Shown here piece after piece: positions 1-24,675 of a DNA stretch of 38,409 bases (positions within the stretch are counted from its first letter, which is position 1; each line of letters starts with the position of its first letter). Both the position numbers and the translations under genes were made by a program. A model generated the notes under the pieces. It searched no databases, was not told the DNA's origin, and saw only the letters and a program-made list of their open reading frames with translations. This stretch comes from an uncultured Candidatus Saccharibacteria bacterium (GTDB taxonomy: Bacteria > Patescibacteriota > Minisyncoccia > Phycocordibacterales > PALSA-1337): positions 1 through 38,409 of the forward strand of contig CAYHTR010000002.1 in NCBI GenBank assembly GCA_964359745.1. Reading direction: 5' to 3'.

Positions 1-62
1 CATGACACATGTATCTTAATACAAAGTGTTGCAATTGATTATTGAACTCGGGATACATTAGA

Positions 63-90
63 TTGCAATTTATTGTAATTGTAGTATGGT
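63..90 (+). promoter_or_regulatory. candidate sigma70-type promoter (TTGCAA, 16-nt spacer, TATGGT) ending about 8 nt before the ATG at 99
   Basis: Read directly from the sequence. No Shine-Dalgarno motif lies between it and the start codon. Only a consensus-like match, no other support. Confidence 0.25.
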
Positions 91-98
91 ATTTCCAG

Positions 99-1079
99 AT
101 GAAAACGCACATTGAACCAGTTCAGATTGGGACGAAGCTGGTCGGCCCAGGCCAACCAACTTACATTGTTGCCGAAATCGGCATCAATCACAACGGCTAT
201 CTTCGGATAACAAAGGACCTCATTGATGTCGCCGTCAAAGCCGGCGCCGATGCGGTTAAGTTTCAAACGAGGAATGTTGATGTGGTATTCACGGAAGAAG
301 AGCTTTCTCGACTCCGTCCAGTACCCAGAAACATTCTTGAAAACGCAATTGCACGCGAGGTTTTGTCGGGAGACGCAGTAGACAGGCTCTTGAGGTCTGA
401 CCTCCAACAGAGCACCAACGGCGACCTAAAGAGATTGCTTGAATTCACCGATACGGAGTACGCGGAAATTGACGCGTACTGCAAACAACGAGGAATTGAA
501 TGGTTCACTTCCTGCTGGGACGCCGGGTCGATTGACCGGATGGAAAAATTCAATCCTCCCTGTCACAAAATCGCTTCGGCCTGCAACGAAGATGATGAGC
601 TCATGCTTCGAGCGCGTGCCACAGGCAAGCCAATCATCCTTTCAACGGGAATGACTGACATGGAGGGTGTGATGAAAGCAGTCGATATCCTTGGGGCGGG
701 AAATTTAGTCATTCTCCATTGCACGAGCGTCTATCCAAAAGGTGCTGAGTCAAATTTGGATATTCTTAAGCTCATTAACCTCCGTGGAATTGATACCCTT
801 CAAGAGGAGTTCGAGGTACCTGTTGGTTTTTCGAGCCACGACAGTGGCATTCAACCAACCTACGCCGCCGTTGCTCGTGGAGCAGTGATGGTGGAAAAGC
901 ACATCACGCTTGAACGCGGGATGTGGGGTTCGGACCAGGGTTCATCAGTTGAACCAAGCGGTTTCATTCATCTCTGTGGGATGATACGCCAGCTTCCATC
1001 TGTACTTGGTGACGGCAAAATCACCATTTATCCTGCAGAGGAGGAAGTGGCAAAAAAACTCCGACGAGTTCGGCGATAG
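99..1079 (+). CDS. NeuB-family ulosonic acid synthase (N-acetylneuraminate/pseudaminate/legionaminate synthase family), apparently lacking the C-terminal SAF domain
   Basis: ORF 42-1079, with the first ATG at 99 (MKTHIEPV). NeuB-family motifs are present: VAEIGINHNG, KPIILSTGM, LHCTSVYP, GFSSHD, VEKHITL. The protein ends at GDGKITIYPAEEEVAKKLRRVRR*, the linker region that normally precedes the SAF domain. Sample line is about 53% GC against about 27% in the next gene. Confidence 0.8.
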   Translation: MKTHIEPVQIGTKLVGPGQPTYIVAEIGINHNGYLRITKDLIDVAVKAGADAVKFQTRNVDVVFTEEELSRLRPVPRNILENAIAREVLSGDAVDRLLRSDLQQSTNGDLKRLLEFTDTEYAEIDAYCKQRGIEWFTSCWDAGSIDRMEKFNPPCHKIASACNEDDELMLRARATGKPIILSTGMTDMEGVMKAVDILGAGNLVILHCTSVYPKGAESNLDILKLINLRGIDTLQEEFEVPVGFSSHDSGIQPTYAAVARGAVMVEKHITLERGMWGSDQGSSVEPSGFIHLCGMIRQLPSVLGDGKITIYPAEEEVAKKLRRVRR

Positions 1080-1098
1080 GCGATAAAAGTAATCACAG

Positions 1099-1125
1099 CT
1101 AGTGGGCATTCCCACTAGTTTTTTT
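1099..1125 (+). terminator. rho-independent terminator after the NeuB-family gene
   Basis: Perfect 8-bp stem CTAGTGGG / CCCACTAG with a 4-nt loop (CATT), followed by a run of 7 T. Confidence 0.7.
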
Positions 1126-1147
1126 ATATGCTATATTGTGTCCAATT

Positions 1148-1894
1148 ATGAAATATGTTCCAAAAATTGTTGCTATTATTCCTGCGCGGGGTGGTTCAAA
1201 GGGTGTGCCAAAAAAGAATATAAAAAAAGTGGGTGGTTTTCCTTTAATTGCCTATGCTATTGCTGTGGCAAAACTTTCAAAATATATTGATAGAATTATT
1301 GTAAGTACTGATAATGAAGAAATAGCAAAAGTGGCAAAAAAATACAGAGCTGAGGTGCCTTTTCTACGTCCTGCCGAAATTGCCAAGGATTCTTCTACCG
1401 ATAGAGAATTTATATTGCACGCCTTAAATTGGCTTAATGAAAATGAAGGTGAAGTGCCAGAATACCTTGTGCAAATAAGAGCAACAACTCCCCTTCGCGA
1501 ATCAAAACTTATAGATAAAGCCATTGAAAAAATAAAGAAAAATAAAAATGCCACCTCGCTTCGTTCTGGTTATGAAATACGCGAATCGCCATACAAACTT
1601 TTTAGCATAGAAAATGAATTTTTTACAGGATTATTTCCTAACGACCCGCGACCGGAATATTATAATCTGCCCCGCCAAAACTTCCCTTCTGTTTATCAAC
1701 CAGACGGTTATGTTGATGTGATAGTTTCAAAACACGCCCTCAATTCTTCGAATTTACACGGATCAAAAATTCTTTCTTTCATAACGCCAAACACTGGTGA
1801 AATTGATAAACTTGAAGATTTCAAATTTCTAGAGTTTAATCTAAAAAAACAAAAGTGGGCTATTCACGAGTACTTAAAAAAACATTTTAAATAA
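1148..1894 (+). CDS. acylneuraminate (CMP-ulosonic acid) cytidylyltransferase family protein
   Basis: ORF 1136-1894, likely ATG at 1148 (MKYVPKIVAIIPARGGSKGVPKKNIK). The IIPARGGSKG..KKN signature is typical of NeuA/KdsB-like CTP_transf_3 enzymes. A TATATT box lies about 10 nt upstream and there is no SD. Confidence 0.85.
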   Translation: MKYVPKIVAIIPARGGSKGVPKKNIKKVGGFPLIAYAIAVAKLSKYIDRIIVSTDNEEIAKVAKKYRAEVPFLRPAEIAKDSSTDREFILHALNWLNENEGEVPEYLVQIRATTPLRESKLIDKAIEKIKKNKNATSLRSGYEIRESPYKLFSIENEFFTGLFPNDPRPEYYNLPRQNFPSVYQPDGYVDVIVSKHALNSSNLHGSKILSFITPNTGEIDKLEDFKFLEFNLKKQKWAIHEYLKKHFK

Positions 1895-3143
1895 TTTCAA
1901 GCGCATTTCTTATAACTTGAAAAGCTTCTTTAAGCGCCTCCACAGAAATTGTTAACGGTGGCGCGATTTTAATTGAATTTTTATTTGTGCATACCGGCAA
2001 GACCCCATTATAAATACATTCTTTCACCACTTTCAACGCATTTTCGCTTTTTTCAAAAATAATAGCCCCCATCATTCCACGAACATTAATATGGGTAACA
2101 AACGGACAAGATTTTAATGAACGCATTTCTTCTTCAAAAACTTTCATTGTCTTTTCTCTTAGTTTAATTTGTGTAGGACTTGAAAGAAAATCAAGATTAG
2201 CTAATGCTGCTGCACAAACCAATGCGCTACCAGAATGAGTGCCGTGCAAATCCGCCTTTTCATCTATATCTACAATATCTTTTCGACTTAAAACCGCGCC
2301 CATAGGCATAGATGAAGAAATTCCTTTTCCCAAACCAATAATATCCGGCTTAATTTCTTTTCCATAAGTCATATATCCATAAACAGGACCGAGTCGATAA
2401 AAACCCGCCTGCAATTCGTCAAAAGATACAAGCGCACCAGCTTTTTTGGCAAATTGGTATAAATCTTTAATATATTTCTGCGGATAAAACCATTCTCCCC
2501 AACCTTGAAATGTTTCTATAACAAAGCCGGCAATTTCTTCCGCTGGAGGCAATTTTTTGGAATCAAAAACATCTTTTTCATTATACGGAAAATCTAGAAA
2601 ACAAACTGAATCATCAGAAACTCCAGACCATTTTGCTTTTTCAACACTTCCTGAAAACAAATCATTGCTCAAACCACGACCGTGGTAATTGCCTTTGAAA
2701 GTAATAATGTATTTTTTATTATTTTTTTTACCGTAGAATTTTATAAGTTTATATACAATATCCATCGCCTCAGAACCAGAATTAAGAAGAATTACTCTAT
2801 CAAAATAAGATGGCGAAATAGAAAGAAGTTTTGAAAGAAATTTGTGTTTTATTTTGGTGGGATAGTTATAAGCAAAGAGCATATCTGAATCAAGTTGGTC
2901 CTTGATGGCTTTTTTTATTTTAGGATTGGAATGGCCAGCATTGGCAACAAAAATACCTGATGTTAGATCAATCCATTTATTGCCTTTATCATCCCAGACC
3001 GAAAAATCAATAGCTTTGTGCCATGTAAGTGGTATAGTATTCGCCACAGCTTTGGGCTCTAGTTTTGCTATAGCATTAAATAACGGGTTTTTATTGAGTG
3101 AAAAATCTTCTCTGATTTCGCGATATTTGGTTTTTATTTTCAT
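1887..3143 (-). CDS. class III PLP-dependent aminotransferase
   Basis: 418-aa ORF starting at an ATG. Motifs: NSGSEAMD, FDELQAGFYRLG (DExQTGFGRTG-like) and GLGKGISSSMPMGA (PLP-lysine region). Its 3' end overlaps the convergent cytidylyltransferase gene by 8 nt. Confidence 0.85.
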   Translation of the reverse strand: MKIKTKYREIREDFSLNKNPLFNAIAKLEPKAVANTIPLTWHKAIDFSVWDDKGNKWIDLTSGIFVANAGHSNPKIKKAIKDQLDSDMLFAYNYPTKIKHKFLSKLLSISPSYFDRVILLNSGSEAMDIVYKLIKFYGKKNNKKYIITFKGNYHGRGLSNDLFSGSVEKAKWSGVSDDSVCFLDFPYNEKDVFDSKKLPPAEEIAGFVIETFQGWGEWFYPQKYIKDLYQFAKKAGALVSFDELQAGFYRLGPVYGYMTYGKEIKPDIIGLGKGISSSMPMGAVLSRKDIVDIDEKADLHGTHSGSALVCAAALANLDFLSSPTQIKLREKTMKVFEEEMRSLKSCPFVTHINVRGMMGAIIFEKSENALKVVKECIYNGVLPVCTNKNSIKIAPPLTISVEALKEAFQVIRNALEII

Positions 3144-3165
3144 CGGATTATGATAGCATAGCGAT

Positions 3166-4101
3166 ATGATTTATTCCACATTAGGAAAAACTGGACTAAA
3201 AGTATCGCGACTAGGATTTGGAACTGCCGAAATAGGCTTTGAATATGGAATTGGCAATAGACCACTTCCAACAGAAAATGAAGCCATTGATTTATTAAAA
3301 AAAGCGGTGGATTTTGGAATTACTTTTTTTGACACAGCAAATTATTATGGATTATCTGAAGAAAGAATTGGGAAATCTAGCATTCTTAAAAATCCTAATG
3401 TTATTATTGAAACAAAATGCGCTCAATTTCTTGAAAAAGGAGAATATTTTCCACGAGCGGAACTTGAACAAAAAATCAGAATTCAAGTGGAAGATAGTTT
3501 AAAAAAAATGAAAATAGATGCTTTGCCTATCCTTATGATTCACGGACCAAACAAAGAACAGATTGAAAAAGGCGAACTCATTGAAATTCTAAAAAAATTT
3601 AAAAAAGAGGGGTTAATTCGCTTTACTGGTGTTTCAACTCGTGGCGAAGAAGCTCCGCTTTCAGCTATATCTTCTGATTTTTTTGATATCATTCAAGTCG
3701 CTTACAGCATATTGGACCAAAGAATGTCGCCACGAGTTTTAACTGAAGCAAATAAAAATAATATTGGCGTGATAAATCGCTCGGTATTATTAAAAGGAAC
3801 TTTGACTCCCCTGCGAGAAAAATTACCAAAAGGTCTTGAACTTTTAAAATCAAATGCTGATAAAGCAAATAAAATTGCTGTTTCTTTAGGGGTTGATTTG
3901 CCAACATTAGCAATTCGTTTTGCATTAAGCAATAAAAATATTTCCACTTCGCTTATTGGCACAAATAAAATAGAAAATTTAAAAAAAGCAGTTAATGCTG
4001 TAGAATCTGGTCCATTACCAAAAGAAATAATAATTAAACTTGAAAAATTAGCAATTGATAACCCAAAGCAAGTTGACCCAGCACAATGGCCAAAATTATA
4101 A
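3166..4101 (+). CDS. aldo/keto reductase family oxidoreductase
   Basis: 311 aa. The N-terminus LGKTGLKVSRLGFGT...FFDTANYYG..SEERIGK is the classic AKR pattern. It is only 22 nt from the divergent aminotransferase start. Confidence 0.85.
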   Translation: MIYSTLGKTGLKVSRLGFGTAEIGFEYGIGNRPLPTENEAIDLLKKAVDFGITFFDTANYYGLSEERIGKSSILKNPNVIIETKCAQFLEKGEYFPRAELEQKIRIQVEDSLKKMKIDALPILMIHGPNKEQIEKGELIEILKKFKKEGLIRFTGVSTRGEEAPLSAISSDFFDIIQVAYSILDQRMSPRVLTEANKNNIGVINRSVLLKGTLTPLREKLPKGLELLKSNADKANKIAVSLGVDLPTLAIRFALSNKNISTSLIGTNKIENLKKAVNAVESGPLPKEIIIKLEKLAIDNPKQVDPAQWPKL

Positions 4102-4943
4102 AAAATATGAAAAATAAAAAAGAAAATTTTGCTTACGAAACATATAAAAGTGTTGAATCATCAACAAATTTTTCCAGTGCAAAAGAATTACAGGAATACC
4201 GCTCATTACTTATGGATAGAGTATATAAAAAAGAAATACCATTTTTCAAAAAAAAATTTCCAAAAGGACTGGGCTCTACGCTAGAAGTCGGTTCTGGAAA
4301 CAGCCGGATTTTATACGCTCTTGAAAAAGAAAATCTTATAACAAAAGCTATCGGATTGGAAATATCTCCCTCTCGTTCAACATTTGCAAAAGAATGGAAA
4401 AAAGATTTAAAATCAAAAATTGTGGAAAATATTTGCGGAGATATTTTCTCTATGGATATTAAAGAGAAATTTGATACTGTTCTTTGCCTTACCAGTATAT
4501 TTCCCTTTTTTGATATGTTGGAGAAAGATGGTCTTAATAAGTTTATAAAAAAAGCTAACCAGTTACTTAAACCCAACGGCATTATTATATTAGAATCGGT
4601 CACCTTCAAACAAGAAATTGAATGTGCTCTTTCCTATGAAGGCAAAGTTAATCTTTGGGCAGAATTTAAAAAAACCGACCCATTTCAATTTAATCTCGTT
4701 GAATATGTATGGAATGAAAAAAAACGAGAGCTCGTGGCAACCACATATAACACTATGCGACACAAACTTTTTATTGACGGCCCAACAACAAAAAAATGGC
4801 ATATGGAGGAAAGTAAAACTATTGAAAAAAAGCTCTCAAAAAACAGCTTTCAAATACAATCTGTGTATGGTGGATATAATGGAAACACATATAAATCTAA
4901 TTCTTTGGAATACATTTTTATTGCAAAAAAGATAAAAAAGTAG
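4086..4943 (+). CDS. class I SAM-dependent methyltransferase
   Basis: 285 aa. Motif I-like LEVGSGNSRIL and a post-motif region NGIIILES. The start could be the ATG at 4086 (16-nt overlap with the AKR gene) or the ATG at 4107. Confidence 0.7.
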   Translation: MAKIIKNMKNKKENFAYETYKSVESSTNFSSAKELQEYRSLLMDRVYKKEIPFFKKKFPKGLGSTLEVGSGNSRILYALEKENLITKAIGLEISPSRSTFAKEWKKDLKSKIVENICGDIFSMDIKEKFDTVLCLTSIFPFFDMLEKDGLNKFIKKANQLLKPNGIIILESVTFKQEIECALSYEGKVNLWAEFKKTDPFQFNLVEYVWNEKKRELVATTYNTMRHKLFIDGPTTKKWHMEESKTIEKKLSKNSFQIQSVYGGYNGNTYKSNSLEYIFIAKKIKK

Positions 4944-4956
4944 TAGCTTATGCATT

Positions 4957-5901
4957 ATGAAATGCGTTATATGTAATAAAACCGTATCGATAATAATAGC
5001 CAAAGAATTGCGCAAGGGTGAAAAGAGAAATGTTTACCTGTGTAAAAACTGCGAACTGGGCATATTGGATTCAAAATTAAGTGCTGAAGAATTAAAAAAA
5101 TTTTATTCCGAAGAATATAGAAAAGTGGGCACGCCAAATATTTCACATAGTTCAAATCCGGAAGAACTTTTTGACACTTACTCAAGATTTCAAAATGATC
5201 GTCTTAAACTTCTCACGCCATATCTCAATAAAAAAACCAAATTACTAGAAATTGGATGTTCCGCCGGAATGTTTCTTTATAAAGTGAAAAATATGGTTGG
5301 AGAAATCGCCGGCATTGACTTTGATAAAACTTCAGCAGAATATGCGTCAAAAAAATGTAATTGTAAAGTTTACACAACCGATATTAAAGAAACGCCTTTT
5401 CCCAAAAAACACTTTGACATGATTCTGGCCTTTCAAACACTGGAACACGTTAAAAATCCTTATAGTTTTATAAATGATTTGAAAGAATATCTCGTTCCGG
5501 GCGGAATCATTGTTATGGAAGTGCCAAATCTTTATGACGCATTGGCTTACTTATATGAACTTCCTCAACATTATCGTTTTTATTATCATTCATCTCATCT
5601 TTGGTATTTCACTGAAAAAAGTTTGAATTTGCTTATGAACAAAACTGGATTCAAAGGAAAAGTTTATCATACTCAGGACTACAATATCTTAAATCATTTT
5701 CATTGGATTGACACCGACAAATCGGATCCAGATTGTAATAAGGGACTAAGTCAGCCTGTTCTACCTATGCGTAAAGAAAGATCTAAAGAAGTTAAAAAAG
5801 CTATGAGTGATTTTATACTTTCAATCGATAAGAATTACAAAAAATTGCTAGTTAAACATAAAATAACTTCCAATATAATTTATATCGGAAAAATGAAATA
5901 A
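4957..5901 (+). CDS. class I SAM-dependent methyltransferase with N-terminal CxxC...CxxC zinc ribbon
   Basis: 314 aa. MKCVICN...LCKNCELG zinc-ribbon pattern, LLEIGCSAGMF motif I, and FQTLEHVKNP..GGIIVMEVPN. Same architecture as the ORF at 27922-28776. Confidence 0.75.
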   Translation: MKCVICNKTVSIIIAKELRKGEKRNVYLCKNCELGILDSKLSAEELKKFYSEEYRKVGTPNISHSSNPEELFDTYSRFQNDRLKLLTPYLNKKTKLLEIGCSAGMFLYKVKNMVGEIAGIDFDKTSAEYASKKCNCKVYTTDIKETPFPKKHFDMILAFQTLEHVKNPYSFINDLKEYLVPGGIIVMEVPNLYDALAYLYELPQHYRFYYHSSHLWYFTEKSLNLLMNKTGFKGKVYHTQDYNILNHFHWIDTDKSDPDCNKGLSQPVLPMRKERSKEVKKAMSDFILSIDKNYKKLLVKHKITSNIIYIGKMK

Positions 5902-5902
5902 T

Positions 5903-6745
5903 ATGAATAAAATTGGCATTATGCAAGGCAGATTAACACCTTCGCAAGGACGGGGGATACAATTTTTCCCCTTTGGGCCTGGTGAATGGCAAGAAGAGTT
6001 TGTAAAAGCAAAAAAATTAGGACTTTATGATATTGACTTTGATTTTGACTTGGAATGCTACGAAGAAAATCCTCTTTGGACTAAAAAAGGTAGAAAAGAG
6101 ATAAAAGAAATTATAAAAAAAACCGGTGTAAAAGTAGAGCATATTACTGCCGATTTTTTTATGCGTCGTCCATTTTTTCGTGTTGATAAAAAAACACAAA
6201 AGAAAAATGAAGATATTTTTATAAAACTGATGAAATATGCAGATGAGATTGGTATTCATAACATAGAAATGCCTATTTTAGATAATTCTTCAATTAAAAC
6301 AAAAGATGAACAAAAAACATTTGTTGAATCCATGTTGCATTGTTTGGCAAAAGCACCTAAAAATATGACAATCAGTTTAGAAGGAGACCTCTCTCCAGAT
6401 AGTTTTTTAAAACTTCTTAAAGAAATAAATAATTCTGCAGTAAAAATTGTTTATGACATTGGAAATAGAGTTGGGCTTGGATATAGTCCAGAAAACGAAA
6501 TTCTGCTATTATACAAACACATAACCCATATACATATAAAAGATAAAAAATTTCAAGGAACAACCGTCCCGCTTGGAACTGGCTCTGCTAACTTTGATAA
6601 AATATTCTCCACTCTTGCTTCAATTAATTTCAAAGGGAATTTTATCTTACAGGTGGCACGAGGTGAAGATGGGAATGAAGAAAAAAAGATTTCAAAAGAT
6701 ATAAAGTTTGTAAATAATTATATAGAAAAATATTTAAAAAAATGA
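5903..6745 (+). CDS. sugar phosphate isomerase/epimerase (xylose isomerase-like TIM barrel, UlaE/SgbU-like)
   Basis: 280 aa. The N-terminus IGIMQGRL....IQFFP...W.EEF..AKKLG resembles hexulose-6-phosphate isomerase / L-ribulose-5-P 3-epimerase-like proteins. Starts 1 nt after the preceding stop. Confidence 0.65.
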
Positions 6746-7545
6746 AAAAAACATTAAAAAACTTTCAACTTGATGGTGCATTAGCTGTTATTACCGGTGG
6801 TGCAGGTCTTTTAGGTCAAAGTCACGCAGAAGCTCTTCTTGATGGCGGAGGCAAAATCATACTCTTAGATATAAATAAAGAAATGCTTGATAAAAAAGTA
6901 ACTCTGCTAAAAAAAACATATGGAGAAAATGTTTGGGGATTTGTTTGTGATATAACAAAAGAATCAGAGATTGAAAAAACAATAAAAGAAATTGAAAAAG
7001 AAATTGGAACCATAGGAATTCTTATAAATAACGCCGCAAATAATCCAAAAATGGAAAAAGGAGGAATAGGATTTTCTCGTCTTGAAAATTTTCCCATAAA
7101 AATGTGGGAACAAGATATCGCTGTTGGTCTAACTGGCGCTTATCTTATGAGTAAAATTATTGGCTCAAGAATGGCGAAAAATGGAAAAGGAGTTATTTTA
7201 AATATTGCTTCGGACTTGGGAATTATCGCTCCGGACCAAAGATTATATGGAGATGCAGTAAAACCAGTTACTTATTCTGTCGTTAAACATGGTCTTATTG
7301 GACTTTCAAAATATCTAGCGACATATTGGCCAGATAAAGGAGTTCGTTCAAACGCTGTGGCATTTGGTGGTGTTTACAATAATCAACCGGATGAATTTGT
7401 GGCAAAACTTTCCAAACTCATTCCTCTTGGTAGAATGGCAACCGTTGATGAATACAAAAGTATCGTCTTATTTATGTGCTCCGACGCCTCTTCCTATATG
7501 ACCGGTTCAACAGTAATCATCGATGGTGGTAGAACCTGCTGGTAA
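6742..7545 (+). CDS. short-chain dehydrogenase/reductase (SDR) family oxidoreductase
   Basis: 267 aa. ITGGAGLLG cofactor motif, NNAA, and YSVVK (YxxxK). Joined to the upstream gene by an ATGA overlap. Confidence 0.85.
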
Positions 7546-9333: not shown

Positions 9334-10008
9334 ATGACGCAAATAAAACGATTAATTGAGCTTATAGTCAATTTTTACGCTAAGTTAAATAATTTTAGTT
9401 TTCCAAATAAATTTACTTGGAAATGGAAGCTAGAAATGCTTTTTCATAATTACGAAAAAGAAACTACAGAATTATTTAAAAAAATCATAAAACCAGGAAT
9501 GACAGTTATTGATATTGGCGCACACATTGGATATTTTACTCGCCTATTTTCCAAACTTGTTGGTGAAAAAGGCAAAGTGTTTGCTTTTGAAGCTGACCCT
9601 ATTAATTTTAGTTTTTTAAAAAGAAATACTTTTCATTTGACTAATACCATTATCATAAATAAAGCTGTGTCAGAACAAAATGGAGAAATTAGTTTTTATC
9701 ATATTCCAGACAGCACTGGTTGTCATAGCGTCATAAAACCAAATAGACCAGCGGAAAAAATAACCATTCCAGCTGTAACTGTTGATTCAATAATAACAGA
9801 ATATAATCTAATCAAAATAGATGTAATAAAAATGGATATAGAAGGGGGAGAATTGCTAGCACTCGCTGGGATGCAAAATCTTCTTAATAAAAGCTCTGGA
9901 ATAACAATAATAACAGAATATAATTCTCTAGCATTAGATAAACTTGAAGCATGTTGTTTTAAGCTTTCCAAAATACCGAATAGTATAAATGTATTAGCAA
10001 AAAAATGA
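9334..10008 (+). CDS. FkbM family methyltransferase
   Basis: 224 aa. VIDIGAHIGYFT, FAFEADP and IKMDIEGGE are characteristic of the FkbM/Methyltransf_21 family. Confidence 0.7.
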   Translation: MTQIKRLIELIVNFYAKLNNFSFPNKFTWKWKLEMLFHNYEKETTELFKKIIKPGMTVIDIGAHIGYFTRLFSKLVGEKGKVFAFEADPINFSFLKRNTFHLTNTIIINKAVSEQNGEISFYHIPDSTGCHSVIKPNRPAEKITIPAVTVDSIITEYNLIKIDVIKMDIEGGELLALAGMQNLLNKSSGITIITEYNSLALDKLEACCFKLSKIPNSINVLAKK

Positions 10009-10009
10009 A

Positions 10010-11227
10010 ATGACCAACAATAAACGCATCTTAATCGTGGCTCCATACGGTTTTAATGACAGAATGACAAATTATATAGAATTCGTCAGTGGTCGACTTT
10101 TAGCTAAAAATGGCTGGTCTGTAATAGCAATTACTAGAGCCGAAAATAATAAAAACTCCATAAATAATACTTGTGGAATAAATGTCTATCGTTATAAAAA
10201 TATCTTATTTGGAATAATAGATTTATTAAATATTCTTCTCCTTTTTAGGCCCAAAATAATTCATATTCATAATTTAAGAAATAATCGACTTGGTATTATT
10301 ACAGCTATTTTTGCTCGCATTTTTTTTATTCATTATGTATTTACCGAATATGGCCTTTTGCACGACCATTATCTTACTGATGACAGAGAAGATCCTTTAA
10401 ATAATACAATTCATACCGAACGAGTTATTTGCAACATAACTCAACTTATTAAAAAAATAATAAAGAAACCAAAAATTTTTAAGTATTATATATCAAGCTA
10501 TATATTTCACTGGCCAATTACTCATGCAAATTCAATAGTTTTCGTATCAAAACATAATATTCTAATCGCAAAAGAATTAAAATTGCCACCCAGTATTTAT
10601 TTGCCTTATATAATTGATAATTACAGATGGACAGCAATTGATTCATCTGGAAAAGAAATTCTAGAAAAAATAAAAAACTTAACTGGCGTTAATGTATTGT
10701 TTATCGGCCAAATGAAATTAAGAAAAGGCTGGGATATACTTTTGAAAGCGATACCTTCTATACCAGTTGATGTTATAGAAAAATTTATTATAAAAACTTC
10801 AACAACGGGCAATGAAAGCGATGAATATAGTAATGTAGTGGATTCTTTGGGGATTAGGGAAAGAATAGTTTATTTAGATAAATTTTTCAGCAATGATATA
10901 CTAAAAAAAGTATACGAAGTTAGTACATTTGTGGTAGTACCATCTCGTTATGAAGGTTTTGGATTAGTGCCTCTTGAAGCATTTGAAATGAATAAACCAG
11001 TTATCGCAAGTCGAGTTAATGCACTTACTGATTTTCTCACTGATAATGAAAATTGCCTTTTAGTTCCATCAAAAGATCCCCAAAAACTAGCTGAAACAAT
11101 TATAAAAATAGCAAAAGATATGGAATTGCAAAAAAAGCTTATAAAAGGAGGAAATGATACACTTAATAGATTAAAATCAAAAGAATATGAACAAAAATGG
11201 TTGGAATATTATAATCAAAAAGTTTAA
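10010..11227 (+). CDS. glycosyltransferase family 4 (GT-B fold)
   Basis: 405 aa. The C-terminal domain has PSRYEGFGLVPLEAFEMNKPVIAS (the E-x7-E motif of GT4). Confidence 0.85.
   Translation: MTNNKRILIVAPYGFNDRMTNYIEFVSGRLLAKNGWSVIAITRAENNKNSINNTCGINVYRYKNILFGIIDLLNILLLFRPKIIHIHNLRNNRLGIITAIFARIFFIHYVFTEYGLLHDHYLTDDREDPLNNTIHTERVICNITQLIKKIIKKPKIFKYYISSYIFHWPITHANSIVFVSKHNILIAKELKLPPSIYLPYIIDNYRWTAIDSSGKEILEKIKNLTGVNVLFIGQMKLRKGWDILLKAIPSIPVDVIEKFIIKTSTTGNESDEYSNVVDSLGIRERIVYLDKFFSNDILKKVYEVSTFVVVPSRYEGFGLVPLEAFEMNKPVIASRVNALTDFLTDNENCLLVPSKDPQKLAETIIKIAKDMELQKKLIKGGNDTLNRLKSKEYEQKWLEYYNQKV
11170..11215 (+). repeat. 46-nt direct repeat, copy 1 (3' end of the GT4 gene)
   Basis: ATTAAAATCAAAAGAATATGAACAAAAATGGTTGGAATATTATAAT, identical to the copy at about 11986-12031. 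Contains the ATG at 11187. Confidence 0.9.
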
Positions 11228-15611: not shown

Positions 15612-16283
15612 TTATTTTTGCCAGGCGCTGAAATCTTTAAAAAATTGCTCAACCGCTTCGGTGGTTTTGAAATGCTCAACCATTGATAGAAAAAACTTTG
15701 GCGGAACAGTTACAATGTGTCCACCTGCATTAAACGCATCTCTAATATCGTCTACACCTCTTATAGAACCAACAATAATCTCTGCTTTTGATTTTCCTTC
15801 ATTTAAAAGTTTGCGAGTCATTGAAACCACATCTTGTGGATTATCAATAGCACCATCTCTGATTCTACACCAAAATAAACTGACATATTTTGCACCAGCA
15901 TTAGCTGCTAAAAGTGCTTGAGTAACATTCATACAAGCTGTACAATTAACTGAAATGCCCGCTTTTGACAATTTACTTATTGCCTCAAGCTCATTCCAGC
16001 CAATTTGAACCTTAATGCTAAGATTTTTATACTTAAAAATCTTTTTGAAATGCTTTGCTTGTTCAATAATTTCTTTAGCATCACGAGAAAAAACCTCAAC
16101 ACTCAAACTTTTATTCCCGCCGTATTTATTAAGCAAAGCCACAATTTTTTTTATATGTTTTTCAAATCCACTTTTTGGTTCTTTTGCCAAAAGTGAAGGA
16201 TTCGTTGTTACACCAGAAATAAAACCCCTTTTTAGGGCGTTTTCTATTTCTGTTAAATTAGCGCTATCTATAAATATTTTCAT
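15612..16283 (-). CDS. tal: transaldolase / fructose-6-phosphate aldolase family (short, subfamily 3B type)
   Basis: 223 aa. MKIFIDSANLTEIE...GVTTNPSLL, Schiff-base lysine region LSIKVQ, and AGAKYVSLFWCRIRD. Confidence 0.85.
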   Translation of the reverse strand: MKIFIDSANLTEIENALKRGFISGVTTNPSLLAKEPKSGFEKHIKKIVALLNKYGGNKSLSVEVFSRDAKEIIEQAKHFKKIFKYKNLSIKVQIGWNELEAISKLSKAGISVNCTACMNVTQALLAANAGAKYVSLFWCRIRDGAIDNPQDVVSMTRKLLNEGKSKAEIIVGSIRGVDDIRDAFNAGGHIVTVPPKFFLSMVEHFKTTEAVEQFFKDFSAWQK

Positions 16284-16897
16284 TTTTTACTCGCTTTAGC
16301 TATTTTTTCTTTTAAACAAAAAGTAATGAGGTGAAATAACACAACATGAAATGATTCCACAAGGGGTGTTGAATCCACCGGCACAACAACGGAAACATTA
16401 GACATCTTTTTCATCGCCCCACCATCAAAACCAGAAATTCCTATGGCTGTCCCACCATTATCTTTTGCAAATTGCAACGCTTTCAAAAGATTCTGCGACC
16501 ATGCTCCCGCTTTATCTTTACCGGCTCCTCCGTGAACACTAAAAGCGATTACTACACTTCCTTTGCTCCAGTAAGTATTAAGTATGCCAGTATAGGCCTC
16601 ATGCCAACCCCAATCATTGGTAGCAGCACTTATCATTGGAATATTATCAGCCAACGCAATAGCACGGATACCTCTTTCATGAGGGTGTTCAATTGTGGTT
16701 TTTATTAAATCTCCTACAAAATGGGTAGCTGTTCCTGCTGAACCGCCATTACCAACGACAAAAACCCATTTGCCTTTTTTCCATGCGTCAAAGAGTGTGT
16801 CCACCACCTTAATAATCGCCTTTTCCTGCAATTTAAGTTTACCTATTACAACTTGAGAGTCCTTCCAGTATTTGTTCACGAATTTTTTTTCAAACAT
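16280..16897 (-). CDS. gmhA: D-sedoheptulose-7-phosphate isomerase (SIS domain, GmhA-like)
   Basis: ORF 16280-17029. The likely start is the ATG at 16897 (MFEKKF), because the longer form overlaps the upstream Nudix gene. SIS motif VVGNGGSAGTATHFVGDL. ATGA overlap with tal. Confidence 0.8.
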   Translation of the reverse strand: MFEKKFVNKYWKDSQVVIGKLKLQEKAIIKVVDTLFDAWKKGKWVFVVGNGGSAGTATHFVGDLIKTTIEHPHERGIRAIALADNIPMISAATNDWGWHEAYTGILNTYWSKGSVVIAFSVHGGAGKDKAGAWSQNLLKALQFAKDNGGTAIGISGFDGGAMKKMSNVSVVVPVDSTPLVESFHVVLFHLITFCLKEKIAKASKK

Positions 16898-16949
16898 CAA
16901 AATATTGTATACCTTTAATAACCAGTATGCAAACAATAAAAAAACCGCC

Positions 16950-17531
16950 CTAAAAAAGAGCGGGTGATACTTCGTAAGTAAAATGAGCAAAGATTCCAGC
17001 GAGTGTTGCAATATCTTTAATTTCTCCATTTTTTATTTTTTGAAGAACTTCCTGTGGAGTAAGAATAATGACATCAACTCCTTGTTTTTCGTCTTGTTTT
17101 CTGATTTCAGATGTAGGCACACAATCAAAAGCTAAGAATAAATGACATCTGTTTTCGATGCGGTCATTTTGAGTGAAAAAACCAAATTTATTAATACGAA
17201 TTAATCGTCCAGGTTTATATCCAGTTTCTGCAATCATTTCTTCTAATACCTGTTCTTCTGGTATTATTCCATCAGGACATCCGCCCGCGATTAATTCTAT
17301 ACTCATCTCAGATACAGGCCGACATTGACGCACAAAAAGAAATCTACCATTGGAAAGTCGGGAACAAACAGCGACATATCCGTTTCCGAAAATCTTAACT
17401 AAAAGAAAATCGGTAATCGTATTACCATTATCGAAATGTACATCAGACAGTGAGACTTTTGCCCATTCGTCTATATGTAACACTTTGGTTTCTTCAATCC
17501 TTCTGGTTAAAGCAACTTTTTTTACTTTCAT
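16950..17531 (-). CDS. Nudix-fold hydrolase with a divergent Nudix box
   Basis: 193 aa. GGCPDGIIPEEQVLEEMIAETGY aligns to GGx..GE.peeaa.RELxEEtG, but Arg and the first Glu of REx2EE are replaced (E and A). A strong SD (AGGAGGAG) lies upstream of the ATG at 17531. Confidence 0.55.
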   Translation of the reverse strand: MKVKKVALTRRIEETKVLHIDEWAKVSLSDVHFDNGNTITDFLLVKIFGNGYVAVCSRLSNGRFLFVRQCRPVSEMSIELIAGGCPDGIIPEEQVLEEMIAETGYKPGRLIRINKFGFFTQNDRIENRCHLFLAFDCVPTSEIRKQDEKQGVDVIILTPQEVLQKIKNGEIKDIATLAGIFAHFTYEVSPALF

Positions 17532-17597
17532 TATTTTTACTCCTCCTGTTTATCAATTTTCATAAATATTACCTTTGTTTAAAGTAACAATTATTTT

Positions 17598-18140
17598 TTA
17601 TTTCGTCAATATGAAAATTAAATCTTCTGTTTTTAAAAAACCATCAATACTAAAATCGCTTTTTAAAGAAGTATTGTAAAACGCTTTCATAAGAATACTT
17701 TTGCAACCAGCGTTTTTTGCCGCTTCGGTATCATTTTCAGTATCGCCAATAAAAAAAGATTGTGAAAGATCAATATTCCATTTTTTTTCTGCATCAATAA
17801 GCATTCCAGGTTTTGGTTTTCTGCAATTACAATTTTCATTCGGATGATGAAAACATATAAAAATATCATCAAAAGGCAATCTTGCCACCTTATCTTGTAT
17901 ATAATCAAAATCTTCCTGATTTATATTTCCATATTTAATGTCTGGCTGATTAGTCGCAAGAATCGCCAAATATCCAAGTTTTTTTACGGCTTCAATAGCT
18001 TCCTTAATGCCCGGCAAAAAACCACTTTTTTCATCAAATTCTTTTTTGCTATATGGAGGAGTGATTTTACCATTACGAATAATGGTTTTTAAAATAACCC
18101 CATCTCTATCAAAAAACACCGCTTTTTTCTTTATTCTCAT
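17598..18140 (-). CDS. gmhB: D-glycero-D-manno-heptose 1,7-bisphosphate phosphatase (HAD superfamily, GmhB)
   Basis: 180 aa. VFFDRDGVI (DxD nucleophile motif) and CFHHPNENCNCRKPKPGML (the GmhB/HisB-N zinc-finger insert). Confidence 0.9.
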   Translation of the reverse strand: MRIKKKAVFFDRDGVILKTIIRNGKITPPYSKKEFDEKSGFLPGIKEAIEAVKKLGYLAILATNQPDIKYGNINQEDFDYIQDKVARLPFDDIFICFHHPNENCNCRKPKPGMLIDAEKKWNIDLSQSFFIGDTENDTEAAKNAGCKSILMKAFYNTSLKSDFSIDGFLKTEDLIFILTK

Positions 18141-18313
18141 ATTCGTTTTTCAAACGCGAGAAAATCTCCACCACTTGCCCTATCCCATAACAATAATTCT
18201 TCGCGAAGTGTAACTGAGGTTGAATTAAACAATGCTTGTTCTTTTGAAACACCGAGTTTTTTTACAACATTTGAAAGTGCTTTTTCTGCTTTTATTTTAG
18301 ATATCATTTTCAT
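18137..18313 (-). CDS. small hypothetical protein (58 aa) translationally coupled to gmhB
   Basis: ORF 18137-18367, probable ATG at 18313 (MKMISKIKAEK). ATGA overlap with the gmhB start. No family recognised, so it could be a relic. Confidence 0.3.
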   Translation of the reverse strand: MKMISKIKAEKALSNVVKKLGVSKEQALFNSTSVTLREELLLWDRASGGDFLAFEKRI

Positions 18314-18499
18314 ACTTACATTATTACAGAAAAAAAGAAAATTAAATACTTGACTATTTATAAACAATATGCTAGATTACTTCTCAGATAGAGAAGCCAC
18401 CCTATCTCGATTGCAATGAAAAACTTTGTAGCTCGTTTGAAACGAAGCTAGAGATGAGCATGAAGCTCCGTTGGTCGAAAAAGGCATTAGTTCGTTGAT

Positions 18500-19102
18500 A
18501 TGAAATCTATTAAAACCCAAACTGATGTACGCCTCGTTGAAGCGTATATTCTCACCAAAATAGAAAAACACGACTATCAAGGAAACCCAGACCCACTAAA
18601 ACAAGCAATTCTTAATCAACCTTTGTATGTGTACGAAAATCGAAGAAAGTTTTTCTTGGTTCTTAGTATCATTATCCAAATAATCATACCCTTTTTTTGT
18701 TACTGGGCATCGTGGTCATTAACATTAAAAGGATCAGACTGTGTATCTTTTACCGCAATAATGTGGCTCACGTTTGGAGGCCTCGCCCTACTTCTAAGCG
18801 TCATAATGTCATTTCATTTCGGTCCCAGTGAATTAGTCTTAGGATGGAAGAGGGACTGCTTGAATTTTGAACAGAAATTCAACACAACCGCACCTGACGA
18901 ATGTACTTTCGATGTGCTTTCCGAAATTGCGGATGATGAGCTAATGAAAAAGGCGGGTGAAGTGCAACACTATGAGAAAGGAAATGACACCAGAAACAAA
19001 TTCATGCATCAGGTGACACGAGATCAGTTTAAAGAAATGTACCACGCAGCATCCAGTCTCGGCCTTCATATCAGAGAGGTAAAAGACTATTTCATGGTCT
19101 AA
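18500..19102 (+). CDS. hypothetical membrane protein (two predicted TM helices), orphan
   Basis: 200 aa. Hydrophobic segments FFLVLSIIIQIIIPFFCYW and AIMWLTFGGLALLLSVIMSF. Sample line is about 43% GC. It is the only plus-strand gene between 13800 and 25356. Confidence 0.5.
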   Translation: MKSIKTQTDVRLVEAYILTKIEKHDYQGNPDPLKQAILNQPLYVYENRRKFFLVLSIIIQIIIPFFCYWASWSLTLKGSDCVSFTAIMWLTFGGLALLLSVIMSFHFGPSELVLGWKRDCLNFEQKFNTTAPDECTFDVLSEIADDELMKKAGEVQHYEKGNDTRNKFMHQVTRDQFKEMYHAASSLGLHIREVKDYFMV

Positions 19103-19125
19103 ATAAAACCTGTAAAATTCAATCG

Positions 19126-19156
19126 TCGCGCGCTCTCGTAGCACGCGATTTTTTAT
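19126..19156 (+). terminator. rho-independent terminator of the orphan membrane gene
   Basis: GC-rich stem TCGCG(C)GCT / AGC(A)CGCGA with one internal mismatch and a 5-nt loop, followed by TTTTTTAT. Confidence 0.65.
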
Positions 19157-19159
19157 TTC

Positions 19160-20143
19160 TTATGGTTTAATTATATGAACTCTGGCGCCTTGGGTATCTA
19201 ATTTAAAATCCATTTCACGCATTTTGAAAGATTCAAGAGCTTTTTGAACTTTAGTTTTTATTTTTTGAGAAGGACAATAAAACATAAAATAACCGCCCCC
19301 GCCTGCGCCCATAATTTTTCCACCAAGAGCACCAGCTTTGCGAGCTTTCTCATATATTTCATTAAAAAGATCACTACTCATTTTATTAGACATAGTTTTT
19401 TTAATCTCCCAATGTTCATTCATAAGTTTTCCAAAACTATCCAAATCTCCTTTGATAAAACATTTCAAAATTTCTTTGCCTATTGTTTTTGTTTTATGTT
19501 TTGATTCCAGTATTTTGGTTTGATTTTGTTCAGCCAAAATATGCTTGCTTTCACGAACCACTCCAGTGTAATAAAACAAACTATTATTAAAAAACTTCGT
19601 CACAGTTTTTTGTTCAATTTTTGGCTTTTTTATTTTTATATCACCATTTTTATCTATTTCCAAAACAACAAAACCACCAAGCGAACAAACATAGGGATCT
19701 TGCACACCGTCAGGTAATTCAAGTGCACGAGTTAATTTAAAAGATTGCTCCGCCGCGCTTTTATTACTCATTTTATTACCTCGAAAAGCTGATAACCCTT
19801 TCATAACCGCAACTGCGCAAGCTCCAGACGAGCCAAGTCCTGTGCCTGCTGGGGTATCAGCTTTAAAAGTTATCGCCACTTTATTTTTTATATCGTGCAT
19901 TATAAGTGCTTGGCGGGCTATTTCGTGACTAATATCTTCCACTCTAGTAACTGATTCAAAATTTTTATAATGAACATGAATAAAATCATCAGATCTCGGC
20001 TCTTTTATAAATACATCCATATAAAGATTTATTGTAACCCCAAATATAAAACCGCCGTGTTTTTCGTAATAAGAAGGTAAATCGGTAGAACCACCACCTA
20101 AAGACAGCCGAAACGGTACACGACTAATAATAATTTTTGACAT
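19160..20143 (-). CDS. hddA: GHMP-family sugar kinase, D-glycero-alpha-D-manno-heptose-7-phosphate kinase (HddA)-like
   Basis: 327 aa. N-terminus RVPFRLSLGGGSTDLPSYY and GHMP motif PAGTGLGSSGACAVAV. Sits in a heptose-pathway gene context. Confidence 0.75.
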   Translation of the reverse strand: MSKIIISRVPFRLSLGGGSTDLPSYYEKHGGFIFGVTINLYMDVFIKEPRSDDFIHVHYKNFESVTRVEDISHEIARQALIMHDIKNKVAITFKADTPAGTGLGSSGACAVAVMKGLSAFRGNKMSNKSAAEQSFKLTRALELPDGVQDPYVCSLGGFVVLEIDKNGDIKIKKPKIEQKTVTKFFNNSLFYYTGVVRESKHILAEQNQTKILESKHKTKTIGKEILKCFIKGDLDSFGKLMNEHWEIKKTMSNKMSSDLFNEIYEKARKAGALGGKIMGAGGGGYFMFYCPSQKIKTKVQKALESFKMREMDFKLDTQGARVHIIKP

Positions 20144-20146
20144 ATT

Positions 20147-22129: not shown

Positions 22130-23048
22130 TTTTTATAATATCCTTAACCATATACGGGGAACGGTCAGGATTATCATAATAAATACGCAACATCATTTCA
22201 GCTAAAAGTCCTATCATAAAAAGCAAAACACCGAGAATAGCAAAAAGTGTTCCGACAGTTGGAAGTGGTGTTTCGGTAATATTTAAAATATGCATTAATC
22301 TAAGCCAAACAGAAAAACCAAAAGCTATTAAAGCTAAAATCATACAAACTAAACCCCAACCACCAAAAAAACGAAGTGGTTTTGAGAAATATTTAACAAA
22401 AAATGCTACACTTAAAAAATCAAAAACTCCTTTAATCATTTTTGAAATGCGAATTTTTGACACACCCACTTGACGATAATGATATGTGACTGGAACTTCT
22501 GTAATTTTTGCTCCTCTTTCTTTTGCTACCGCAACAAGAAAAACTTGCGATTCGCCTCGCAAACGAAAATCTTTTATAAACTTACTTCTGTACGCTTTGA
22601 GTCCACAGCCAAGGTCGTGAACTGAAATACCTAAAATCAATCTCGCACACCAGTTGGCAAAGGCAGAAAATAACATACGACTAAAAGCATCTTTGCGGTT
22701 TTTTCTTAAACCAATAACAACATCAAATCCTTCTTCCATTTTTTTAAGAAGGGTTATAATTTCAGCCGGGTCATTTTGCAAATCAGCATCAAGCAATACA
22801 ATTATATCGCCCCGCGAAATATATATTCCCATATCGATTGTCGCTGTCTGTCCATAATTGCGTTGAAGAGAAACCAGTTTGAGAGGTTTAAGTTTTGAAG
22901 CAATTTCTTTTGTCTTATCTCTTGAACAATCATTGACAAATATAATCTCATATTGCTCTTTTTGAGACCTCATAACATCAAAAATGCGCCTATAAAGCTC
23001 AACAACAGTCTTTTCTTCGTTAAAAATAGGCACAATAACGGATATCAT
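22122..23048 (-). CDS. glycosyltransferase family 2, polyprenyl-phosphate sugar synthase type (GtrB/ArnC/DPM1-like) with C-terminal TM helices
   Basis: 308 aa. ISVIVPIFNEE, FVNDCSRDKT, LLDADLQNDP, and two C-terminal hydrophobic helices. 8-nt overlap with the downstream fusion gene. Confidence 0.85.
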   Translation of the reverse strand: MISVIVPIFNEEKTVVELYRRIFDVMRSQKEQYEIIFVNDCSRDKTKEIASKLKPLKLVSLQRNYGQTATIDMGIYISRGDIIVLLDADLQNDPAEIITLLKKMEEGFDVVIGLRKNRKDAFSRMLFSAFANWCARLILGISVHDLGCGLKAYRSKFIKDFRLRGESQVFLVAVAKERGAKITEVPVTYHYRQVGVSKIRISKMIKGVFDFLSVAFFVKYFSKPLRFFGGWGLVCMILALIAFGFSVWLRLMHILNITETPLPTVGTLFAILGVLLFMIGLLAEMMLRIYYDNPDRSPYMVKDIIKNE

Positions 23049-23057
23049 AATCGGCTC

Positions 23058-23063
23058 ATTATA
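23058..23063 (-). promoter_or_regulatory. TATAAT -10 box (minus strand) about 9 nt upstream of the GT2 start codon
   Basis: The minus strand reads ...CCCCGTTTTTTTTATATAATGAGCCGATTATG. The box lies directly downstream of the terminator hairpin. Confidence 0.35.
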
Positions 23064-23092
23064 TAAAAAAAACGGGGTTTTATCAACCCCGT
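23064..23092 (-). terminator. rho-independent terminator of the radical SAM gene
   Basis: The minus strand reads ACGGGGTT GATAA AACCCCGT followed by TTTTTTTT: an 8-bp perfect stem starting about 10 nt after the stop codon. Confidence 0.75.
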
Positions 23093-23101
23093 CTGTGTTT
23101 C

Positions 23102-24649: not shown

Positions 24650-24675
24650 TTAAAGACCTTTCTAAAGCCAGAATA

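Follow-up and report, generated by a model that had tools for sequence, protein, structure and literature searches.

A SAF-less NeuB-family synthase heads a conserved, putative CMP-ulosonic-acid gene module in Patescibacteria

At the start of a contig from an uncultured Candidatus Saccharibacteria bacterium (Patescibacteria) lies a gene for a phosphoenolpyruvate (PEP)-condensing synthase of the NeuB family, here NeuB', which ends without a SAF domain and heads a module of eight genes. The stretch of DNA analysed, hereafter the window, is 38,409 nucleotides long and comprises bases 1–38409 of contig CAYHTR010000002.1 (assembly GCA_964359745.1); the genome amounts to 447,854 bp and is 83.7% complete. 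Judging from sequence, we hold on balance, and with modest confidence, that NeuB' is a sugar-phosphate-using synthase of the type that forms the 9-phosphate of 3-deoxy-D-glycero-D-galacto-non-2-ulosonic acid (Kdn or KDN; Kdn-9-P) and that it heads a module for a cytidine monophosphate (CMP)-activated ulosonic acid; the eight genes together probably make and CMP-activate a modified, sialic-acid-like (Kdn-type) surface sugar. This reading draws on the phosphatases that accompany the SAF-less clade to which NeuB' belongs, on the NeuA-type cytidylyltransferase encoded next to the synthase, and on the recurrence of the module in related genomes.

NeuB' belongs to a clade that natively lacks the SAF domain

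The synthase gene and its flanking elements are:

99..1079, + strand: NeuB', SAF-less NeuB-family PEP-condensing synthase (PF03102, fold match, mapped catalytic residues)
1097..1127, + strand: intrinsic terminator 3' of NeuB' (10-bp stem and T-run)
62..94, + strand: candidate NeuB' promoter region (conserved with L001)

The NeuB' open reading frame begins with ATG at position 99 and encodes 326 amino acids (aa), with the C-terminus …GDGKITIYPAEEEVAKKLRRVRR directly before the stop codon; near database relatives of the protein carry the Patescibacteria label. PF03102 NeuB, matched over two stretches (212.2 bits against a cut-off of 22.1), is the sole domain that Pfam returns; SAF is missing from the protein at E ≤ 0.01. 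Nor does another gene of the 83.7%-complete genome provide the domain, as a six-frame search of all its sequence gave no PF08666 match; the same type of search identifies the 99–1079 gene as the genome's only NeuB. The best profile matches of NeuB' are NeuB and PseI, and the corresponding NCBIfam equivalog cut-offs are both missed (TIGR03569, 213.7 against 399.65; TIGR03586, 171.7 against 340.25).

The original prediction, made from the letters of the window, had described NeuB' as SAF-less, had excluded truncation at a contig edge, and had placed a strong terminator behind the gene, and all of this stands. A hairpin at 1097–1120 followed by a T-run begins 17 nt past the stop codon (−15 kcal/mol, z −5.6 relative to shuffled sequences) and is kept, with stem changes, in L001, one of the related Patescibacteria loci. 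The 3' end of the gene is internal to the contig and more than 170 relatives from many phyla share the endpoint just past E-x5-K-L-R-R; the 5' end, though, has just 98 bp of contig before it, so the region upstream is unassembled. The best 120 database relatives are 290–360 aa long and carry PF03102 alone. We also scanned species-representative genomes, finding 596 NeuB' relatives and keeping 83 cross-phylum loci, and in 83 of 83 the reading frame stops no more than 14 residues past a conserved E-x-P-x-x-x-K-L-R-R(V) motif. The SAF-less end of NeuB' is a native family trait and not a truncation.

Conservation was examined in a 170-sequence family alignment and, separately, in an alignment of the 120 closest relatives. 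In the former, E314, L321, R322, R58, R73, W140, D165, R273 and R297 are at least 95% conserved, and NeuB' fits the definition of what we call the KLRR clade: an end within about 14 residues of E-x5-K-L-R-R, plus R58, R73, W140 and D165. NeuB' holds every residue that is invariant among the 120 closest relatives; it deviates at seven positions that are at least 95% conserved in the larger family, none of them a mapped catalytic residue. In a quick maximum-likelihood tree (with three outgroup rows on long branches) a branch with an SH-aLRT support of 98% divides the KLRR clade from SAF-bearing paralogues, and NeuB' falls into an eight-member Patescibacteria subclade with 99% support. In the window's subclade (relatives of at least 58% identity), residues 162–164 (nt ~582–590) are C-N-E in place of the S-L-T found elsewhere in the family, and residue 246 (nt ~834–836) is S in place of G.

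The implication that lack of the SAF domain is unusual did not hold up. A 2021 survey found that about 30% of 13,941 UniProt nonulosonic acid synthases lack SAF and form whole branches of environmental organisms (PMC8208679), so SAF-lessness as such is not new. Such an enzyme has also been solved: PDB 6ncs (Leptospira borgpetersenii, 290 aa, released 2018) is the best PDB match to NeuB', and its chain stops at the corresponding point with …SLRRK. We found no paper on 6ncs, the title of the entry names no substrate, and our literature search returned no substrate assignment for SAF-less NeuB-family enzymes.

The base composition of NeuB' sets it apart from the module neighbours. Its G+C content is 50%, with 0.51 at third codon positions (GC3; 0.48 for the L001 copy at 10001–10975), as against a GC3 of 0.13–0.27 for the neighbours. 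An assembly chimera is rejected as the source, as L001 has the same gene with the same composition and flanks within a 181-kb contig. It looks as if a donor richer in GC had supplied NeuB' as a replacement of this one gene before the window and L001 lineages split, and as if the gene had so far not ameliorated. A 33-nt AT-rich stretch precedes NeuB' in both the window and L001, and from this conservation we propose 62..94 as a candidate promoter.

Two side observations concern SAF-less NeuB proteins more widely. L087, whose contig holds a full NeuB' module, also encodes on the − strand (2113–2958) a second, very divergent SAF-less NeuB of 281 aa adjoining a NeuC-type Epimerase_2 gene; it forms the longest branch of the tree. 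In a nearby ESM Atlas cluster of NeuB-only proteins of about 290 aa, Uroviricota is the commonest labelled taxon, and phages may carry SAF-less NeuB genes.

The KLRR tail is predicted to reach the partner's active site

The AlphaFold2 (AF2) model of NeuB' has a predicted local distance difference test score (pLDDT) of 95.8. Its best Foldseek matches are PDB entries 6ncs and 1xuu, and KdsA and DAHPS structures appear as distant barrel matches only (10–14% identity). NeuB' residues E26, K54, Q56, K157, S160 and S182 are equivalent to E25, K53, Q55, K129, S132 and S154 of NmeNeuB, and Y212, S245, H247, E266, H268 and D279 to Y186, S213, H215, E234, H236 and D247; the mapped metal and catalytic residues are invariant over the 170 relatives. 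NeuB' ends 11 residues beyond the last aligned NmeNeuB position, 283, and its C-terminus is modelled as a helix (312–321). An insertion of about 30 residues in the β2-α2 loop is modelled as two helices (77–86 and 91–99).

The predicted NeuB' homodimer scores 0.74, as compared to 0.00 for the best of three controls. This mark is reached by 20 of 30 proteins solved as one-chain pairs and, among 23 solved as single chains, by 1, counts that hold only roughly for a run that, like ours, used an author-built alignment. Separate runs agree in at least 93% of contacts, with a partner pLDDT of at least 91. In the predicted dimer, residues 313–326 of one copy contact residues 160–168, 183–188 and 209–212 of the other, and the contacted loops carry the equivalents of K129/S132, S154 and Y186; residues 162–164, distinctive of the window's subclade, belong to one of them. 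The model supports a KLRR tail that would act in trans at the partner's active site, as Arg314 of the SAF domain does. We also considered the helical insertion as a replacement for SAF across the dimer, and this is not supported: residues 74–103 are not among the confidently placed interface residues, which is in itself no proof of non-contact, and about a fifth of the relatives lack the insertion.

The KLRR clade is associated with KdsC/KDN-9-P-type phosphatases

Neighbours of NeuB' homologues were counted in the 83 cross-phylum loci by crude gene clustering, which gave the following figures:

40/83 loci: haloacid dehalogenase (HAD) phosphatase of ~164 aa, mostly directly downstream of NeuB'
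36/83 loci: cytidylyltransferase near NeuB'
30/83 loci: short-chain dehydrogenase/reductase (SDR) near NeuB', 50–57% identical across phyla
23/83 loci: GmhA-like SIS isomerase near NeuB'
17/83 loci: UlaE-like barrel near NeuB'

The commonest neighbour of the clade, the ~164-aa phosphatase, belongs to the KdsC/KDN-9-P type. The copy in L004 matches the KDN-9-P phosphatase structures of Bacteroides thetaiotaomicron at 7e-20 and KdsC at 1e-16 or weaker, and its top NCBIfam model is KDN-9-P phosphatase; the copy in L087 clears the cut-off of the YrbI family. The simplest arrangement is found in actinomycetes, for which we analysed 79 loci of cultured genera. Here NeuB' stands in a compact cytidylyltransferase–phosphatase–NeuB' triad (cytidylyltransferase in 70/79, phosphatase in 62/79), with none of the other module genes and with no SIS or heptose genes nearby in the 79 loci. 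Members from Streptomyces were sought through the Sphaerisporangium homologue, and the best 80 loci were all from other actinomycetes. Being tied to KdsC/KDN-9-P-type phosphatases, the clade would use a sugar phosphate, most simply to form Kdn-9-P. This also speaks for the claim of the original prediction that the sugar acceptor differs from the usual one.

Other lineages combine NeuB' with different partners. In Gastranaerophilales/Melainabacteria (L004–L007, L009, L012–L015, L025, L027, L030, L033, L039, L044, L056 and L059) NeuB' and a KdsC-like phosphatase form a pair surrounded by housekeeping genes such as those for chorismate mutase, aspartate kinase and a histidine kinase, with no cytidylyltransferase nearby; three genomes checked (L013, L015 and L059) each have a true KdsA. 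Acidobacteriota, Planctomycetota, Verrucomicrobiota and others (L011, L017, L031, L042, L047, L054, L061, L079 and L083) show a different conserved set around NeuB' and the phosphatase: a nucleotidyltransferase, NDP-sugar dehydratases, DegT, (GmhA-like SIS), NeuB', HAD, a thiamine-diphosphate enzyme of ~600 aa, an FkbM methyltransferase and a family 2 glycosyltransferase. These loci are without a cytidylyltransferase, and the keto acid may be decarboxylated there instead of being CMP-activated. The Chloroflexota loci L022, L038, L055 and L062 have two cytidylyltransferases each (the one at 8592–9890 of L038 is fused to a HAD phosphatase domain); L022, L055 and L062 encode two KLRR-tail NeuB' paralogues, and L022 and L038, and in part L055, carry a TIM barrel, GFO/IDH/MocA, SDR and GmhA-like SIS in a row.

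The eight-gene module recurs in Patescibacteria

Downstream of NeuB' and its terminator, the window module comprises:

1148..1894, + strand: NeuA/PseF-type CMP-ulosonate cytidylyltransferase (CTP_transf_3, PF02348)
1887..3143, − strand: class III (omega-type) aminotransferase (Aminotran_3, PF00202)
3166..4101, + strand: aldo/keto reductase (AKR; Aldo_ket_red, PF00248), recurring in L001, L002, L016, L028, L087 and L088
4086..4943, + strand: S-adenosylmethionine (SAM)-dependent methyltransferase 1 (PF13847/PF08241), ortholog in L001
4957..5901, + strand: SAM-dependent methyltransferase 2 (MT2) with an N-terminal Cys4 motif (PF13489), in 15/83 loci
5903..6745, + strand: UlaE-like xylose-isomerase-fold TIM barrel (AP_endonuc_2, PF01261), candidate keto-sugar epimerase/isomerase
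6742..7545, + strand: PtmA-like classical SDR (PF13561; NF006619 160.9 bits, under the cut-off of 255)

All seven neighbours match profiles of the families that the original prediction had named. The cytidylyltransferase scores 137.7 bits with the PseF model (cut-off 205.7), and its PDB matches are NeuA-type (1e-32) far ahead of KdsB (1e-6). The nearest solved structures to the aminotransferase are acetylornithine, ornithine and γ-aminobutyrate (GABA) aminotransferases, a likeness to omega-aminotransferases that act on aldehydes and ketones. UlaE (3cqh, 2.6e-11) is the sole PDB relative of the barrel, and the SDR has orthologs beside NeuB' in other phyla.

The window gene set recurs in eight other Patescibacteria loci, with the module order kept in L001, L002, L003, L087, L088 and L090; a ninth locus, L089, is partial. 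They differ as follows:

L001: same order throughout; a PF05159 KpsC/KpsS-family transferase and a Wzy gene upstream
L002: module plus Hydrolase_3 phosphatase
L087: module plus Hydrolase_3 phosphatase
L088: NeuB'/cytidylyltransferase immediately adjoined by a canonical NeuB+SAF/cytidylyltransferase pair; last gene PF05159-like
L003: without the aminotransferase/AKR pair; extra GFO/IDH/MocA gene
L090: without the aminotransferase/AKR pair; extra class IV aminotransferase and SIS gene
L016: MT2, cytidylyltransferase, AKR, TIM barrel, SDR, NeuB'
L028: cytidylyltransferase, AKR, KdsC-type HAD, TIM barrel, SDR, NeuB'
L089: partial, with NeuB', cytidylyltransferase, GFO/IDH/MocA and SDR; TIM barrel missing

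Because the gene order recurs in this way, we regard the module as real and uncharacterised, in agreement with the original prediction of a non-canonical CMP-ulosonic-acid module headed by NeuB'. Four genes form its core, those for NeuB' and the cytidylyltransferase together with those for the UlaE-like barrel and PtmA-like SDR. The barrel adjoins the SDR in the window, L001, L002, L003, L016, L028, L087 and L090, and lies one gene apart from it in L088; the aminotransferase and AKR are paired, occurring together in the window and four related loci, and the methyltransferases are variable. A KdsC-type phosphatase lies within the modules of L002, L028 and L087, and in L001 and L088 the module has a PF05159 (KpsC/KpsS-family) transferase as its immediate neighbour. 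L088 holds a canonical NeuB+SAF system beside NeuB', and the two systems are therefore distinct.

A proposed pathway to a Kdn-type surface sugar

NeuB' is predicted to be active and, by analogy with its family, would condense PEP with a manno-configured aldose to yield a 3-deoxy-2-ulosonic acid. In the dimer, the conserved C-terminal helix and K-L-R-R tail would reach the active-site loops of the partner and give an arginine in trans. The acceptor is most likely a sugar 6-phosphate, as in the conversion of mannose 6-phosphate (Man-6-P) to Kdn-9-P in Bacteroides and Prymnesium; the product would be a phosphorylated nonulosonate that is then dephosphorylated and activated by the adjacent NeuA-type cytidylyltransferase. 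As this cytidylyltransferase is NeuA/PseF-like and not KdsB-like, a C9 acid of the Kdn type is likelier than one derived from 3-deoxy-D-manno-oct-2-ulosonic acid (Kdo). The PtmA-like SDR and UlaE-like barrel may oxidise and epimerise the sugar, probably through a keto intermediate if analogous systems are a guide, and the class III aminotransferase and AKR would add an amino group, for which the aminotransferase could use the same keto intermediate. That the latter two genes travel as a pair makes plausible the amination step, akin to that of 8-amino-Kdo (Kdo8N), that the original prediction had suggested. The two methyltransferases would methylate the sugar, and the expected end product is a CMP-linked, aminated and methylated Kdn-type sugar for a surface glycan built by the rest of the window.

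Where the acceptor would come from is less evident. As the original prediction had it for the module, the genome has no NeuC/LegG/PseG-type gene (PF02350), and the window's sole DegT/dehydratase pair (31389–33322, with a 4,6-dehydratase-like SDR) is generic and far under the PseB/C and LegB/C cut-offs (DegT 179 against 423 for PseC; dehydratase 33 against 408 for PseB and 94 against 475 for LegB). The genome's only SIS match is a GmhA-like isomerase:

16280..17029, − strand: GmhA-like SIS isomerase (TIGR00441, 85 bits, under the cut-off)

This enzyme is a possible supplier of the manno-configured sugar phosphate. It belongs to a GDP-heptose-type set at 15612–25356, 8 kb downstream of the module, which comprises a transaldolase/fructose-6-phosphate aldolase (FSA), the GmhA-like SIS, a Nudix protein, a GmhB-like HAD, a GHMP kinase and a nucleotidyltransferase; a B12-radical SAM enzyme and a GFO-DAO fusion accompany it. 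L003 has its heptose genes immediately next to the NeuB' module.

Several points weigh against the proposed pathway. No C0/KdsC-type HAD phosphatase was found in the window or in the rest of the 84%-complete genome, so as far as assembled the phosphate step is not encoded here. Neither phosphoglucose isomerase (PGI) nor type I or type II phosphomannose isomerase (PMI) was detected in the genome, and with no NeuC-family gene found either, the usual routes to Man-6-P or N-acetylmannosamine (ManNAc) are not visible. A one-residue gap in the alignment takes the place of a counterpart to NmeNeuB E134, with the invariant D165 three to four residues on, and the passing dimer score may reflect the memory of the prediction model, since NeuB dimers are solved. 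As the window's subclade departs from the family consensus in that active-site loop, it may use another acceptor than the actinomycete triads do. Finally, the literature yielded no assayed enzyme of the KLRR clade, and the clade is likened to proven Kdn producers (BT1714, Streptomyces) by gene logic and not by sequence.

Alternative acceptors and functions

Given the heptose genes, the acceptor could instead be D-glycero-D-manno-heptose 7-phosphate made by the GmhA-like isomerase, yielding a ten-carbon (C10) 3-deoxy-ulosonic acid phosphate that would then lose its phosphate and be tailored and CMP-activated. In 18/83 loci, GmhA-like SIS genes are found no more than 4 kb from NeuB', often adjacent to it with the phosphatase on the other side, and their best models are phosphoheptose isomerases, all under cut-off. 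The full heptose set occurs in the window and next to the module in L003, the genome has a GmhA-like gene yet no detected PGI or PMI, and Magnetospirillum is reported to contain CMP-activated C10 ulosonic acids of unexplained origin (bioRxiv 10.64898/2026.04.20.719630). However, those acids are diacetamido sugars; the absence of SIS and heptose genes from the 79 actinomycete loci is better accommodated by an acceptor from central metabolism, for example Man-6-P; fructose 6-phosphate could just as well be turned into Man-6-P by a GmhA paralogue; and the presence of heptose genes in one glycan island with the module may mark no more than a shared glycan. We consider a heptose acceptor for NeuB' unlikely, and the broader proposal that KLRR-tail NeuBs beside GmhA-like isomerases, the window's included, use heptose 7-phosphate to give a CMP-activated C10 ulosonic acid is a shade more doubtful still. 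If true, the module would make sugars of a class known to date from nothing but unexplained mass-spectrometry signals. A five-carbon acceptor has also to be weighed. The genome has no PF00793 (DAHP_synth_1/KdsA-family) gene, the associated phosphatases are of the KdsC/YrbI family, PF05159, which lies by the module in L001 and L088, is the family of the KpsC/KpsS β-Kdo transferases, and the aminotransferase/reductase pair calls KdnA/KdnB to mind. NeuB' might therefore stand in functionally for Kdo-8-P synthase, joining PEP to arabinose 5-phosphate on the way to a CMP-activated, Kdo8N-like octulosonic acid. We find this improbable: the cytidylyltransferase is far nearer to NeuA/PseF than to KdsB, and KDN-9-P is the top-scoring model for the L004 phosphatase. 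Replacement of KdsA in lineages that bear lipopolysaccharide (LPS) can be rejected, as 5/5 LPS-bearing genomes with the NeuB'–phosphatase pair keep a true KdsA above cut-off.

NeuB' could also be an ordinary synthase of the neuraminic, legionaminic or pseudaminic acid type minus its SAF domain, using an unphosphorylated ManNAc-type or 6-deoxy-diamino sugar made elsewhere. The top profile matches to NeuB and PseI, the DegT aminotransferase and 4,6-dehydratase-like SDR at 31389–33322, and the lack of a detected KdsC-type phosphatase in the genome as assembled would all suit such an enzyme. Yet the equivalog scores fall far short, the DegT/dehydratase pair is far below the PseB/C and LegB/C cut-offs, no PF02350 gene is present in the genome, the module holds no N-acetyltransferase, and L088 keeps a canonical NeuB+SAF system alongside NeuB'; we rate this possibility as low as that of a Kdo-8-P synthase. 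A truncated, inactive remnant or an assembly artefact, to which the GC3 difference from the neighbours and the start 98 bp from the contig edge might point, is barely credible and already contradicted by the data, given the same high-GC gene in the same place with conserved flanks in L001, the shared endpoint of the relatives, and the retention of every residue invariant among the closest ones.

Significance and comparison with known systems

Nonulosonic acids are major bacterial surface determinants, and all textbook routes to them use a SAF-bearing synthase. The SAF-less branch now gains a sequence definition (the KLRR tail plus conserved arginines), a structural idea (a tail that would act in trans in place of SAF) and an assigned chemistry that can be put to the test (a Kdn-9-P-type acceptor, hence a sugar phosphate). 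Both the Patescibacteria module and the probable sugar-phosphate chemistry of the clade are undescribed; no paper joining Patescibacteria with nonulosonic acids was found in our literature search. The ultra-small Patescibacteria have little metabolism of their own and still keep an eight-gene, tailored version, which hints at an aminated, methylated, Kdn-like surface sugar that could matter for attachment to host cells.

NeuB' shares with NmeNeuB the TIM-barrel fold (Foldseek E 3.5e-23), the metal ligands and most catalytic residues at ~27% identity, as well as, by prediction, a C-terminal element that covers the active site of the partner in the dimer. While NmeNeuB uses a SAF domain with the substrate-binding Arg314, NeuB' has the 11-residue KLRR tail in its place, along with the 30-residue two-helix β2-α2 insertion and substitutions of W for F112 and S for N184 of NmeNeuB. 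PDB 6ncs is closer in being SAF-less, in its …SLRRK end at the same position and as the best sequence and fold match, but it has neither the helical insertion nor the conserved loop motif TNGDLK and is also only ~27% identical.

The tailoring genes have counterparts in other sugar pathways. Kdo8N of Shewanella is formed by the dehydrogenase KdnB and the aminotransferase KdnA, so that there, as in the window, a redox enzyme and an aminotransferase are encoded beside ulosonic acid genes; the parallel is drawn by role, and the window sugar is probably C9. E. coli YcjQ/R/S oxidise a sugar, epimerise the keto-sugar with an AP_endonuc_2 enzyme and reduce it again; the related loci L003 and L038 have the TIM barrel, GFO/IDH/MocA and SDR side by side, whereas the window module is without the GFO gene. 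The legionaminic acid clusters of Campylobacter encode PtmA (an SDR) and PtmF (an oxidoreductase), and PtmA is the best model for the window SDR, although the score stays under the cut-off.

A parallel in gene logic is the CMP-Kdn pathway, known from B. thetaiotaomicron (phosphatase BT1713, Kdn-9-P synthase BT1714 and a CMP-Kdn synthetase) and from the Kdn-9-P synthetase of Prymnesium parvum (PMC6200933); in actinomycetes, streptomycete walls contain Kdn teichulosonic acid (PMC11481543). The window differs from this pathway by the addition of the aminotransferase, AKR, SDR, UlaE-like barrel and two methyltransferases, and by the phosphatase not having been found. The actinomycete triad has the combination of this pathway, in which a NeuB-family synthase is joined by a C0-type HAD phosphatase and by a cytidylyltransferase, the phosphatases of the KLRR clade match BT1713 at least as well as KdsC, and in the window, too, a NeuA-type cytidylyltransferase (1148–1894) stands next to the synthase.

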